Shown here: in pieces, positions 34,092-38,042 of the stretch
Numbering within the stretch: the first letter of the stretch is position 1
How the letters are laid out: every line of letters begins with the position of its first letter
IMG/VR virus record: IMGVR_UViG_3300037067_006113
Location: 32,001 to 96,000 of that record
DNA: 64,000 nucleotides
Direction: 5' to 3' (one strand)
Origin: a virus
Lineage: Duplodnaviria > Caudoviricetes
Notes under the pieces: generated by a model
Databases searched by the model: none
The model's input: the letters and a program-made list of their open reading frames with translations, nothing else
What the model was told of the DNA's origin: nothing
Made by a program: the position numbers and the translations under genes

Positions 34092-34199
34092 TAATTTTAT
34101 ACACTTAGAAATTAATCACTATACACTTGCGAGATTTAACAAGTGTATAGTGTCAACCTCTAAATTAAAAAATCAGGCTAAATTAACTTAAAGAATAAC

Positions 34200-34757
34200 T
34201 TACCAACTTGAACTATATGAGAATTCTCCACCTTCAGCGATAGCTTCCTCACATATTTTCTTAGTTAGTTCTAGATCTGCAATATAATACTCATCGTATC
34301 CGGTAGATCCGAAAAAGCAACCTTCAGTTGTTGGTAACAATTCTTGTGCAACAGACGGATCTTTTATATATCTACCCTTTACCATTATTGGAATTTTCTT
34401 ACCGTTTTCATCAAAATTATATCCATTCTGGATTTCTCCTTTAACCAACTTTGACGCATTAAGAACTTTATTTACAGTATCCAAAAGGTTTTGTAGATTT
34501 TCTGTAGTTACATAATATTCTTTGCAGTCGTCATTTCCATTTTGGATATTATCAACAAACCATTTATGGATTGCATTAGCTTTACGCCAATAGCCAACTC
34601 TTTCAACTATTTCTGTTATTCTTTCTTCCTTTATTACTTTAGTTGGAAAGATAACGCCCTTCTGATTATTTGGAACTATTATTTTTACTCTTTGTTCTGG
34701 CTTACGGTATTCGTTTCCAATATATGTTTTCTTATTCAAATACATGTCTAAACCCAT
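34200..34757 (-). CDS. conserved phage hypothetical protein (MGLDMYL...YWRKANAIH type)
   Basis: Recognisable phage motifs; ends YSSSW. Confidence 0.8.
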   Translation of the reverse strand: MGLDMYLNKKTYIGNEYRKPEQRVKIIVPNNQKGVIFPTKVIKEERITEIVERVGYWRKANAIHKWFVDNIQNGNDDCKEYYVTTENLQNLLDTVNKVLNASKLVKGEIQNGYNFDENGKKIPIMVKGRYIKDPSVAQELLPTTEGCFFGSTGYDEYYIADLELTKKICEEAIAEGGEFSYSSSW

Positions 34758-34828
34758 ATATATTCTTTCTGCCTGATTTTGTTTTCAACGTACAACTTAA
34801 TTTAATAAAATATTTTACCTATTAAAGG

Positions 34829-35203
34829 TTATAATTCTGCTTCAAATTCGCATTTTCCTTCCTTCTTAACGCATTCTAAGATTTCATTTCCTAATCCTAA
34901 TCTTGCATACCACTCTAGTAACTCTTTTGCCTTGTTAAGGGGAACGTTTAATTCTTTAACTATCATTTCATCGTTATAACCATTGTTATCTTTAAAGAAT
35001 TTATCTAATTTATCTTTATATTCTCCTAATTTTTTAATACATTTTCTAATACCTTTTTCTATACTTTCTAGATCACTTGTCTCAAAATAATAGTTAAGAT
35101 AATTTGGTTCACTTTCAATACCTCCAAAAAAACTTGCGTCATTTGAGGCCTGAACACCAAACCAAAACTTTCCTTCTATATCTCCACTATAATATCTACC
35201 CAT
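34829..35203 (-). CDS. conserved phage hypothetical protein
   Basis: MGRYYSGDIEGKFWFGVQ; AGGTGA SD. Confidence 0.8.
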   Translation of the reverse strand: MGRYYSGDIEGKFWFGVQASNDASFFGGIESEPNYLNYYFETSDLESIEKGIRKCIKKLGEYKDKLDKFFKDNNGYNDEMIVKELNVPLNKAKELLEWYARLGLGNEILECVKKEGKCEFEAEL

Positions 35204-35515
35204 ACTTATTCACCTTCTTTCAATTAAATTATTTACTAGCCACAAGGTAGAATAAATCTACCCTGTCCGCCAATCTATAATTGACCTAACATGTAGTAGC
35301 ATGAGTTAAGTTTGTGTTCTATTTCCTCTGATTTAATTCCTGCTATATTGAACAAACTTAATATACTTTTATACTTATCTATGAGACCTTGAACATATTT
35401 ATAATTGCTCATATATTCTCCTAATTAAATACTTTAGAAATTCATCAGGAACTATGAATTATCATAATTCCTGTCAACCCCTAAATTAAAAAATCAGGTA
35501 AAAACAATTCAGTGA

Positions 35516-35821
35516 TTATTTTTCTTTCTGTTCCATAAGAATGTTGCCTACCACATCCCACTCTGCCAGTTCGCCTAATAGAACATTACCTTTTAATACA
35601 TTGAAATGTGGATTTCTAACGTTTTTTTCATTAAAACGTGCCTCCTCGTCACCCCACATTGTACATTTACCATAACCCAATCCTTTATAATAATCGGTTG
35701 GTATTATTTCAACAAATGTACACTGAAGTATGCGGTATAGTTCCTCTAAACTCTTTTTCTTTTTTGAAACACCTAAATCTTTTTTAGATCCGTCTTGCTT
35801 TAATAAAATATATTTATACAT
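35516..35821 (-). CDS. DUF3846-like phage protein
   Basis: LEELY..VEII..GDEEAR..N..VVGNIL. Confidence 0.65.
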   Translation of the reverse strand: MYKYILLKQDGSKKDLGVSKKKKSLEELYRILQCTFVEIIPTDYYKGLGYGKCTMWGDEEARFNEKNVRNPHFNVLKGNVLLGELAEWDVVGNILMEQKEK

Positions 35822-35872
35822 ATAAATAGACCTTTCTACCTGATTTTATTTTTAATGTGCTATCTTAAACTT

Positions 35873-36190
35873 TTAATCCCACCACAATCTAACTACAACC
35901 ATATTTCCGCCTATTACTGGTATAATTGTATAATCATATTCATTAGCCGACATAGCAATTTTTCCTATTGCTAACGCTCTCTTATCAATTCCCAGAAGAC
36001 TGATAACCAAAGTGTCTCTTTCATTCTTCCAGTAATTTATACCTTCTATATCTACAAAATTATAAACACCGACCTCTTCGTCTAGTAGTTCTTTCAGCAC
36101 TTTTCCACCTGGACAGTTATTAAACTCCTCCTCTATTTTAAGTGAGCTATCTTTTATATTTTCTTCTGTTAAACGCATATATTTATTCAC
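35873..36190 (-). CDS. hypothetical protein
   Basis: AGGTGA SD; ends VRLWWD. Confidence 0.7.
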   Translation of the reverse strand: MNKYMRLTEENIKDSSLKIEEEFNNCPGGKVLKELLDEEVGVYNFVDIEGINYWKNERDTLVISLLGIDKRALAIGKIAMSANEYDYTIIPVIGGNMVVVRLWWD

Positions 36191-36205
36191 CTACAATCTA
36201 TAATA

Positions 36206-36364
36206 ATTTAATAAGATACTGATACGAAGCAAAGGGCGAGGATTTGCACCTCGCAAGTCTTATAGAAAAGGATCAATTTTTCATCAGACTACCTGACTAT
36301 TTCGTCTTCCGACTATTGCGTTACTACTTCCGCCACCTTTGCTTCTTATCAGAACCTCATCAAA
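36206..36364 (-). ncRNA. tRNA-like RNA (core 36229-36342) with a large insert replacing the anticodon arm
   Basis: Acceptor GCAAAGG/CCTTTGC; D arm TGGCGGAAGTAGTAACGC; T arm GCGAGG-TGCAAAT-CCTCGC; no CCA; about 23 nt of further outer duplex. Confidence 0.7.
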
Positions 36365-36496
36365 GTAAATATAATGTAAGTATATTCACTCTATCAAACT
36401 CTTATAATTACTAGCCAATTATTGTTAATAATCCCGCCCACTTGCAGACTAGCGAACAAATGGGCGAGAGCTAATCTTATTACTTGCAATTATTCA

Positions 36497-37682
36497 TTAT
36501 TCCAATGTTGTATGTTTATAAACGCCGTCCATTCTTAAATCGTCAATAAGACGTTCTGTATTTTGATATAAAATCTCAGTATCATTTATCTGTTCCAACT
36601 TTTCATATAGTTCGGTTGGAAAATTTTCCATTGACACATTTTGTACCTCTTGTGTTTTAGCCCAATTAGTTATTATCTTTTTTTGACTTCCTGTTAGTTT
36701 TCTCATTTGATATCACCCCCTTAAATTAATTTTATAAACTAACTACAAGGCGTAGCTCAAACTCTACGCCCTGTACGCTAATCTACAATATAGGTTGACT
36801 TGAGCATTTACTGTTATATGGGTAATTATCTTGCTCTTTTTCAGTAGTTAAACATACACAAGTGCTATAGAGTAAATGCCAATGCATATCCATACCGCAA
36901 CCACCAACTTTTACACTATCCCATGACATCTTATTGTTATAGCAAACATTGAGTAGCATATTATAGTGTAGAGTATTGAAATGTCTTAACATACCGGAAC
37001 GGCTAACAGTCATAGAACAAACGACATTACCTTTTTTAATATCTTTTAGATAGTTTCTAGCGTCTTTTTTAAAATCTTCAAAACCATAATATCTGTTTTC
37101 GCCTTTTCTTTTATCAAAAATTGCTTGTAGTTTTTTATCACTTTTCATAAATTATTCACCTCCTTAAATAAAAATTATTCTTTAATTAGTGTCACTCTTA
37201 TGAAGTAACGAGCTAACTTTGATTGTTCCAGCGTCAATAAGTCTATTTCGTTGCATATAGACAATCTCGCTTATTTTTTCCATTCCTATACTTGTGACCG
37301 TTCCTATAGCTTCGGCAATCGCCTTTTTTGCCGTTTCTTTTACTTGACTATTCGTTACGCGTAAACCTGTAGACAACTCGGATACGTCCCAGCTTTTATC
37401 GTAAATATAGGACTTATGAACTACAAAAGTAAAACCAAACATATCAAAGGCATGAAAACCTTTAACTTCTTGTTGTATTGGTTTATCCCGATTACCGTTA
37501 TCTGTTACTGTAATATTAAATGTCATTTTTTTCATATTAAAAACCTTTCAAAAATTTATACTAATTCAAACTTTTTATACCTTCCACACTTTTGGCAATA
37601 TTCCACTTTATATACTTTCATAAGCGGATTTTGCCATTTATAACTTATTATTATAGGTTTTCTACATTTACACTTAATCATA
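36497..37682 (-). CDS. four small genes (36497-36706, 36783-37148, 37182-37535, and a 41-aa Cys-rich ORF at about 37557-37682)
   Basis: Strong SDs on most; last one hand-translated (MIKCKCRKP...CQKCGRY). Confidence 0.7.
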
Positions 37683-37764
37683 TTTATAAACTCATTACAG
37701 CTCACAGTCTTTATGAGCTGTATCAATCTCTAAATTAAAAAATCGGGTTAAAATAACTTATTGA

Positions 37765-37995
37765 TTAAAAGAATGCACAAGGTACTTCATTGTTTGCAGA
37801 TAACCCACTAGGAACGAAACCCAACTCGTCTTGCTGTATCTGTTCTTCATAACTCAGCTTTCTTTTTCTACCCAAAAGGTTAGCTTCCGCTTTTATAAAT
37901 CCCATTCTTTCCCCGTGTTCCTTAGAGAGTTTAATGTTTTTTCTAATCTGCTCTCTTTCTTCTTCAGTTTTGCAATCTTTAATGTATTTTGGCAT
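37765..37995 (-). CDS. hypothetical protein (IR-wrapped)
   Basis: AGAAAG SD directly after the 5' repeat arm. Confidence 0.7.
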   Translation of the reverse strand: MPKYIKDCKTEEEREQIRKNIKLSKEHGERMGFIKAEANLLGRKRKLSYEEQIQQDELGFVPSGLSANNEVPCAFF

Positions 37996-38042
37996 TTTAT
38001 TTCTTTCTACCCGATTTTATTTTCAACGTGCTAACTTATTAC

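Follow-up and report, generated by a model that had tools for sequence, protein, structure and literature searches.

Three Genes of the Window Share One Frame

The subject of this analysis is a repeated arrangement of short sequence blocks around small genes in a 64,000-nt stretch of viral DNA (hereafter the window; positions 32,001 to 96,000 of IMG/VR record IMGVR_UViG_3300037067_006113, Caudoviricetes). Three minus-strand genes, located at 37995–37765, 35821–35516 and 34757–34200 and encoding 76, 101 and 185 aa, respectively, were all found set in one and the same frame. We refer to the enclosed genes as cargos and to the framed units as cassettes A, B and C. The initial annotation had described three unrelated genes in a common frame, and both halves of the frame are indeed present at these minus-strand sites. 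A pattern search allowing up to three mismatches recovered each half exactly three times in the window, as compared with 0 expected from 100 shuffles, and again exactly three times across the whole 115,271-bp virus record (G000).

Upstream of each cargo, an outer block, (TAAGTT)-GYACRTTRAAAAY, is followed by a 10-nt arm (AAAATCRGGY), then without any gap by a weak Shine-Dalgarno (SD) sequence, AGAAAG, and 7–10 nt beyond it by the ATG. Downstream, a U-rich block (TAAGTTATTTTA or a variant) lies 14–21 nt past the stop codon and is followed by a second arm (RCCYGATTTT), then UU, AA and a long hairpin. The arms lie 244–604 nt apart, with the whole open reading frame (ORF) between them. Their perfect complementarity covers 10 nt, and not the ~14–18 nt proposed initially, as any extension runs only through interrupted A/U and G.U pairs. 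We found no complement to the 3′ arm nearby in cassettes A–C, and a local terminator at this arm was rejected for that reason. The 5′ and 3′ halves are different blocks that have TAAGTTA alone in common, and in cassette A this heptamer forms a short direct repeat ahead of each half. TAAGTTA was rejected as a genome-wide signal, since its 27 minus-strand and 19 plus-strand copies compare with 27.5 expected per strand.

In cassette A, the 5′ half (38003–38040, minus strand, as are all frame positions of A–C) comprises TAAGTTAG-CACGTTGAAAAT, the 5′ arm AAAATCGGGT (38018–38009) and the weak SD sequence (38008–38003), and the 3′ half (37737–37760) comprises the U-rich TAAGTTATTTTA, a candidate anti-SD, the 3′ arm ACCCGATTTT (37748–37739) and a U run. 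The 5′ half of cassette B (35832–35869) carries the arm AAAATCAGGT (35847–35838) and AGAAAG (35837–35832), and its 3′ half (35488–35510) carries TTGTTTTT followed by the arm ACCTGATTTT (35499–35490). Cassette C has TTAAGTTGTACGTTGAAAAC, the arm AAAATCAGGC (34780–34771) and AGAAAG in its 5′ half (34765–34800), and TAAGTTAATTTA with the arm GCCTGATTTT (34178–34169) in its 3′ half (34167–34190). Cargo A matched no family, cargo B gave a weak, sub-threshold match to DUF3846, and cargo C a partial match to phrog_7971.

Arms Covary between Conserved Flanks in Seven Framed Genes

Scans of public collections revealed four more framed genes in three other contigs. The resulting census of seven (A, B and C, two in contig L019, and one each in L045 and L075) is a lower bound, because the scans used exact patterns. 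L019, a 28-kb viral contig (in G001), carries two framed genes in tandem, L019-1 with the arms AAAATCGGGT/ACCCGATTTT around a 59-aa gene, and L019-2 with the arms AAAGACAGC/GCTGTCTTT around a 76-aa gene. In L045, a metagenome contig of 45% G+C, the arms AAACACGGC/GCCGTGTTT enclose a 75-aa gene, and a TTGACA-17-TATTGT promoter lies directly upstream. The complete 40.8-kb phage L075 (G002) has the arms of L045 around a 137-aa LPD29-domain gene, likewise with a promoter upstream. A metagenome scan with an arm-agnostic 3′ pattern gave 46 loci, among which L045 alone was confirmed, L055 and L063 were doubtful, and the remainder were chance matches in AT-rich DNA; L020 and L076–L078 were also judged to be chance matches. 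None of 50,697 phage records matched the region in a megablast search.

The seven copies were anchored on their flanks, namely the 11 nt from the outer block to AGAARG and the 13–14 nt from the 3′ arm to the hairpin, in which the spacing is fixed, and arm pairs were counted by script over 10 columns (70 cells). We found that 69 of the 70 cells are Watson-Crick pairs, with zero wobble, and that five of the ten columns covary. When arms were re-paired among copies, just four trivial permutations of 5040 matched the observed pairing. In the four added frames the flanks are kept while 3–5 arm positions are altered, and every alteration is compensated. Flank identity across copies ranges from 57 to 90%, and is 80–90% between copies whose arms have diverged most, for which arm identity falls to 40–50%. 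For instance, A and L045 share 26 of 30 flank positions and only 10 of 20 arm positions, and the two neighboring L019 cassettes, which show the largest arm divergence, share 26 of 30 and 8 of 20. The placement is equally constant: the arm abuts AGAARG (0 nt) in all seven copies, the start codon lies 13–16 nt past the arm, and the 3′ arm lies 9–21 nt past the stop codon.

Fixed flanks around a helix that varies yet always remains complementary bear the signature of selection on pairing, and we regard this pattern as the strongest evidence obtained. The divergence of the arms amid conserved flanks would fit a helix free in sequence, possibly under pressure for each arm to fit its own partner only. 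The earlier proposal of selection on long-range pairing, as opposed to a fixed binding sequence, is thus borne out by the four added frames, whose changes are all compensated. The related claim that each arm best fits its own partner is weak inside the window's genome alone, where it amounts to one in six arm permutations and two cross-pairings cost merely one G.U wobble; it gains support from the copies found elsewhere.

Most framed copies lack a promoter of their own. A sigma-70-type promoter stands directly ahead of the frame in L019-1, L045 and L075, and ahead of a differently framed gene of the window, 42055–42396 (see below), which would place the 5′ arm region of these genes at or near the RNA 5′ end.

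As a separate observation, a 5′-frame-like block, GCACATTGAAAAT..AGAAGG, precedes a 275-aa gene in two further contigs (L087 1818–1856 and L088 5913–5951, plus strand). Its post-stop partner is weak (5+3 bp) and the hairpin module is absent; the case is doubtful and may represent a decayed or divergent frame.

A Differently Framed Gene in the Window

All 218 predicted genes were scanned for duplexes joining the 5′ untranslated region (UTR) to its 3′ counterpart. The three cassettes ranked 4th, 6th and 7th by duplex energy, and the other top entries were false ORFs within tRNA genes, apart from rank 1. This was the plus-strand gene 42055–42396, with a duplex energy of −25.9 kcal/mol that was reached by 0.03% of mismatched controls. 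The unit, a fourth closed gene (41985–42452, plus strand), opens with a promoter-like TTGAAT-17-TATTAT (41985–42013) and encodes 113 aa. Its 5′ arm, TTGCTGGA..GCCAAGT (42018–42038), lies at the predicted RNA 5′ end, with AGAAAG 2 nt later, and the stop codon is followed by TAAGTTAG, the 3′ arm ACTTGGCTCCAGCAA (42426–42440) and a U-rich tail. No local terminator was found ahead of the convergent gene. The encoded protein has two homologs (P0135 and P0136). The gene shares the logic of the cassettes, but its arms are unrelated to theirs in sequence and the hairpin module is absent.

A Conserved Hairpin Adjoins the Frames and Also Occurs without Them

The hairpins of cassettes A, B and C (37680–37736, 35430–35487 and 34101–34166, respectively) have an armless counterpart, module D, at 33111–33176, directly past the stop codon of the ORF 33430–33179, all on the minus strand. 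Ten copies of the hairpin were aligned, comprising these four, two from L019 and one each from L045, L070, L071 and L075. RNAalifold predicted a single 22-pair helix, in which 12 of the 22 pairs show compensatory changes. One G.U pair is retained in nine of the ten copies; as the opposite strand would carry a C.A mismatch, this marks the structure as one of the coding-strand RNA. The sequence of the lower stem, TTTAGAGAT/GTTTCTAAA, is conserved, with one- and two-sided compensating changes. Above it lies a small conserved irregularity, TGA opposite (G)ATGA, and the upper stem is free in sequence. In module A the lower stem reads TTTAGAGAT/GTTTATAAA and the internal loop TGA/AATGA, and the upper stem is variable.

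The motif TTGAYA was rejected as a promoter −35 box followed by a hairpin; we found that it sits within the one long irregular hairpin, and that a −10 box at 16–18 nt is absent in every copy. A kink-turn was also rejected, because the critical G of ATGA is U in two of the ten copies and forms a G.U pair instead, as was a hammerhead, of which the third stem and the UH site are absent.

A covariance model built from the ten-copy alignment (R1) scored modules A, B, C and D at 67.9, 66.1, 57.9 and 52.8 bits, respectively. Searched against the sequence already gathered for this analysis, it returned module D and further armless copies, two in L079 and two in L084. In several armless hairpins the lower stem begins at the stop codon of the gene before it, or overlaps that codon. 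The hairpin is an independent intercistronic RNA element, and the wrap is present in some copies only; module D in particular shows that the hairpin is separable from the wrap. A scan of genome collections yielded two real copies, in L070 (a metagenome-assembled genome of Ignavibacteriales) and L071 (Orenia), and three chance matches. Against Rfam 15, the gathering scores returned tRNAs only and E values up to 5 added two chance matches, leaving the hairpin unmatched. Its size and internal irregularity resemble those of T7 RNase III sites, and it is probably a processing site or an exonuclease barrier.

Two other structured elements were noticed in this part of the window. A second family of intercistronic hairpins (35285–35235 and 36800–36745, minus strand) is characterized by TAGATTRGCG, an ACAGGG..CCTTGT stem and RGYTAGT, and each member is followed by a conserved block, ATAAAATTAATT..GGTGA, ahead of the next start codon. 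One copy is terminator-like by score and a weak match to R1. A gene-free stretch at 36219–36407 (minus strand) contains a promoter-like TTGATA-18-TATATT (36397–36368) and, after it, a structured region that includes an imperfect inverted repeat of 39 nt (36204–36242/36329–36367). R1 matched weakly at 36345–36407, and Rfam gave no match.

The Frame and Its Cargo Differ in Distribution

The eight enclosed proteins, from the seven frames and from 42055–42396, show no mutual similarity, and most of them match no family, with B, C and the LPD29 protein of L075 as the exceptions. Comparison of cargo across frames, a check that the initial annotation had called for, showed that the cargo differs. L045 and L075 are related phages, with neighboring proteins 37–58% identical, and have identical arms around different cargo, at a different position and in a different orientation. 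Conversely, cargo homologs occur without the frame. Twelve distant homologs of cargo C were found in viral contigs, none of them framed, and homologs of cargo B elsewhere are 55–64% identical and lack the frame. In L084, a related 119-kb phage, the homolog of cargo B occupies the syntenic place with no frame and with a strong SD sequence of its own; this contig has no wrap and two armless hairpin modules. The contigs L079–L083, which are relatives via a conserved 124-aa neighbor, have no wrap either, and armless hairpin modules occur in L079.

The frame itself is shared by phages that are otherwise distant. Proteins shared by G001 and G000 are just 27–33% identical, bar one gene at 94%, yet the frames are nearly identical. 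The exceptional gene is a 145-aa ORF (G000:C1:19932-20255; G001 594–1031), which looks like a recent gene transfer. In addition, a small Cys-rich protein (window 38654–38917, minus strand) is 79% identical to one of L075 (3308–3559, minus strand), although G002 is otherwise unrelated. It is encoded just upstream of cassette A here and after the hairpin in L075. Its position next to a framed gene in both phages suggests an exchange of early-region modules.

Because frames hold different cargo and homologs of cargos B and C are unframed, the frame appears to move, or to be exchanged, separately from the gene. Ordinary homologous recombination within the conserved 30–40-nt blocks is the likely means. 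No match to a tyrosine recombinase (PF00589) was found in G000, G001 or G002, and no transposase-like match among the neighboring ORFs. An empty site, in which the 5′ half is joined to the 3′ half, was seen at none of the loci examined, and no protein that could serve as a carrier-encoded common partner is shared by G000, G001, L045, L070 and L075. The sequencing runs listed as containing the sequence are DNA only, from landfill and groundwater metagenomes. Four of these gave low-coverage contigs of the same phage, in which the arms showed neither an informative variant nor a junction. The one DNA joint reported had a 27-nt side and came from contigs of low likeness. The initial idea of exchangeable cargo is thus supported in part, by the eight unrelated proteins, the difference between L045 and L075 and the unframed homologs of B and C. 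The accompanying idea that the arms are recombination ends found no support, since inverted arms would lead to inversion and not to excision, and neither a tyrosine recombinase in the three genomes nor a DNA junction was found.

Predicted Pairing and a Proposed Closing Helix

In minimum-energy folds the arms paired in all seven cassettes, with pair probabilities of 0.80–0.99, and the hairpin formed alongside. Duplex prediction with extended arms had the GAAA of the SD sequence pairing with a conserved U-rich block in six of the seven, using G.U, and the outer A-rich block pairing with the U run. The SD sequence was covered in the minimum-energy folds of cassette B and L019-2, and cassette B reached 15 contiguous predicted pairs once it was included. 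This pairing with the SD sequence would account for the conservation of the U-rich TAAGTTATTTT, which is not enriched genome-wide (27 minus-strand copies versus 27.5 expected).

To our knowledge, just a handful of single bacterial genes are known to have an mRNA whose two untranslated ends pair with each other. In the hbs mRNA of Bacillus subtilis, 14 bp joining the 5′ UTR to the 3′ UTR protect the transcript by masking an RNase Y site (PMC5737220), and in the icaR mRNA of Staphylococcus aureus an anti-ribosome-binding site in the 3′ UTR blocks translation and invites RNase III (PMC3868564, PMC7821165). Anti-SD-like sequences located hundreds of nt downstream likewise pair with ribosome-binding sites in B. 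subtilis, repress translation and speed decay (PMC12697547). In the present frames, an arm at the ribosome-binding site has its partner in the 3′ UTR of the same cistron in seven of seven cases, and compensatory change is present.

We therefore favor, at a probability of roughly 55%, the interpretation that the frame forms a helix joining the 5′ UTR to the 3′ UTR and closing the cistron, as part of a portable expression frame which holds one early gene each and spreads by recombination. The arm of 9–10 nt directly 5′ of AGAAAG would pair with its complement 9–21 nt past the stop codon, making the cistron a loop, and the helix would continue imperfectly into the SD sequence (GAAA against TAAGTTATTTT) and outward as A/U pairs. 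By analogy with hbs and icaR, transcription of the 3′ arm would partly shut the ribosome-binding site and dampen initiation, and the 5′ end, tucked to the 3′ end, would be shielded together with it from nucleases; initiation and nuclease access would both be tied to the fold. The separate hairpin may mark the 3′ border of the unit, and the conserved flank blocks would let homologous recombination swap the inner gene or move the frame between phages. Since no part of the helix falls within the ORF, elongating ribosomes would leave it closed, and only initiating and terminating ribosomes would touch it. A link between translation status and closure is plausible, albeit speculative.

A bolder form of the proposal, which we consider unlikely but worth stating, is that phages exchange the frame, as a self-sufficient "closed-loop cistron" device with effects beyond damping at the ribosome-binding site, to serve as a socket for new early genes. 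The helix of such a device might act as a translation-gated long-range terminator that controls continued transcription of the following gene, or might mark the cistron, beside the conserved hairpin, for excision and so yield end-paired or circular mRNAs with a lifetime and translation insulated from the remaining operon.

Several observations weigh against a closing helix. End-to-end closure is common among genes folded as excised units, at least 12 such pairs being formed in 22 of 179 genes of this AT-rich genome. Folding is thus consistent with the model and, taken alone, weak and not decisive. The helix core is short, 9–10 bp with 4–5 G-C pairs, and would have to span 260–590 nt, and pairing with the SD sequence is imperfect, being absent in C. 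The seven copies reduce to five arm types in four lineages, some of them probably inherited copies. The lack of any G.U pair among the 70 arm cells is somewhat uncommon in an RNA helix and would fit an origin at the DNA level equally well. Finally, homologs of cargos B and C work elsewhere unframed, and the frame is dispensable for those proteins.

Alternative Explanations

The closing helix, perhaps stacked on the hairpin, could instead be a processing stalk that host RNase III or another double-strand nuclease cuts, releasing the cistron end-paired and conceivably circular. The hairpin begins 2–4 nt past the 3′ arm and, as an irregular helix of 22–27 bp with a conserved bulged region, is a T7-type RNase III site in size and style. 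Moreover, RNase III of B. subtilis cuts long-range intramolecular mRNA duplexes (PMC11780869), and the 5′/3′ pairing of icaR makes an RNase III substrate (PMC7821165). The long-range core, however, measures 9–10 bp and reaches ~15–20 only with interruptions, whereas RNase III needs roughly two helical turns. The comparison with RNase III stalks drawn in the initial annotation is weakened by the same figure, which is well under ~20 bp. An RNase III gene was found in none of G000, G001 and G002, so that a host enzyme would have to act. G000 encodes RtcB (and sigma factors), but the complete genome G002, which bears a framed gene, has no RtcB, leaving the suggested excision or circularization of RNA unsupported. 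We consider a processing stalk improbable. As for RtcB itself, the gene (G000:C1:12352-14403, minus strand) lies outside the window; its match is split in two along a single 714-aa open frame, suggestive of an insertion, e.g., an intein.

It is also conceivable that the arms are the stem halves of a split intrinsic terminator with the gene in its loop, such that the U run terminates transcription only when the 5′ arm is free and read-through depends on translation. The order of A-tract, G+C-rich stem and U-tract, AAAATCGGGT ... ACCCGATTTTTT, is found in A, B and C, which have 4–5 G-C stem pairs and six U. In six other viral contigs, the 22-mer tail GATTTTTTAATTTAGGGGTTGA forms the end of an ordinary local terminator hairpin that precedes a canonical promoter, and the gene 42055–42396 has only the 5′/3′ helix and the U-rich tail, with no local terminator before the convergent gene. 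Intrinsic terminators need a short loop of a few nt, with the stem forming as the RNA emerges, and a loop of 260–590 nt is far beyond what they tolerate. In addition, the U-tract is weak in L019-2 and L045 (three U only), four of the six U of A–C are consumed within the helix, and the hairpin and downstream genes share the operon, where strong termination would silence the latter. These points make a split terminator quite improbable. In the six contigs just mentioned (L001–L006, IMG/VR, another phage lineage), the exact 22-mer serves as a terminator U-tail, and is followed by TTGAC(A/T)-17-TATAAT and paired palindromic operator-like sites.

The same likeness to the local terminator-promoter module of L001–L006 could mean that the loops of pre-existing terminator hairpins acquired genes, by insertion or by growth in place, and that the complementary arms are functionless relics not yet decayed. 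All arm pairs are perfect, as young relics would be, and cargo homologs function unframed. A relic would leave unexplained, however, why seven copies that hold unrelated cargo have kept both the inner (AGAAAG, TAAGTTATTTT) and the outer flanks, and why 3–5 differing arm positions include not one uncompensated change; an empty site was seen at no locus examined. We regard it as very unlikely. We give just as little credence to an element acting at the DNA level, in which a mobile cassette, transposon-like or attC-like, would have the arms as its terminal inverted repeats or recombination sites, with their complementarity serving a recombinase. It would account for the same frame holding different cargo in unrelated phages, for wholly Watson-Crick, wobble-free arms, and for the short direct repeat TAAGTTA ahead of both halves in A. 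A recombinase, though, needs a fixed sequence, and here the arms vary in a complementary manner while the flanks are fixed. Recombination between inverted repeats inverts and does not excise, attC arms adjoin each other instead of surrounding a gene, and no target-site duplication was seen, nor any junction in the DNA contigs. Neither a tyrosine recombinase (in G000, G001 and G002) nor a transposase-like neighbor was found, and the fixed placement at the SD sequence and the stop codon points to RNA.

Relation to Known Systems

The proposed closing helix resembles the hbs and icaR cases in its ~10–15 nt of complementarity between the ribosome-binding region and a post-stop stretch, with the ORF between them, and in its Gram-positive-type SD context. 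Unlike these single chromosomal genes with idiosyncratic sequences, it belongs to a repeated, conserved frame that encloses seven or more unrelated genes across four phage lineages, with covarying arms and a dedicated conserved hairpin behind them. In phage MS2, too, long-distance RNA pairings gate translation. As in MS2 and with the downstream anti-SD sequences of B. subtilis (PMC12697547), pairing with the ribosome-binding region over hundreds of nt would control initiation. In those systems the partner lies inside the coding sequence, whereas here it is a dedicated conserved 3′ block, and most of the pairing is borne by the arm beside the SD sequence, not by the SD sequence itself.

The leader-trailer stalks of rRNA are at least 20 bp long and are cut on both strands. 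Like these stalks and the RNase III sites of T7 early mRNA (reviewed in PMC3867540), the frame would place a long-range helix around a unit in a polycistronic transcript, and, like T7-type sites, it has a neighboring hairpin with an internal loop. In contrast to the rRNA stalks, its core is 9–10 bp, abuts the SD sequence and encloses a protein-coding gene, and cleavage is only conjectural.

The PeSL cassettes of T4-type phages are blocks that bracket small genes and are thought to have spread by homologous recombination, and mini-circles have been shown for them (PMC2839356, PMC4122927). As with PeSLs, short conserved blocks bracket small, homolog-less genes of early or hyperplastic regions, the enclosed gene differs by phage, and spread probably proceeds through homologous recombination within the blocks, with no dedicated recombinase. 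A PeSL, however, is a full local terminator hairpin plus promoter, directly repeated on both sides, whereas complementary halves flank the gene here and most copies of the frame are promoterless. The features of integron cassettes and attC sites were not found: G000, G001 and G002 gave no PF00589 match, and the arms surround the gene instead of adjoining each other.

The frame would make end-to-end mRNA pairing a standard part, with blocks of 30–40 nt reused for unrelated genes across otherwise very different phages. If the helix controls translation or decay, it would provide individual operon genes with a compact natural insulator that appears orthogonal, and offer a handle for early accessory genes in uncultured phages, possibly counter-defense genes (one cargo carries LPD29). 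It would also offer a concrete test system for long-range mRNA folding that is used rather than avoided. The hairpin adds an RNA motif without an Rfam match, present in phages and two bacterial assemblies.

Other Complementary Flanks in the Window

Two further minus-strand genes of the window have complementary flanks. In the region 43740–44235, a 141-aa gene (44190–43765) is flanked by an imperfect inverted repeat of ~25 nt. The upstream arm overlaps the gene's own TTGACT-17-TATTAT promoter, which excludes a role of the repeat in the mRNA of this gene. A D..VDVK motif in the protein may indicate a PD-(D/E)xK nuclease. At 45118–45444, a perfect 9-nt complement, CAAAAGGTT/AACCTTTTG, connects the SD region of a 108-aa gene with its 3′ UTR, within the chance range for 9-mers.

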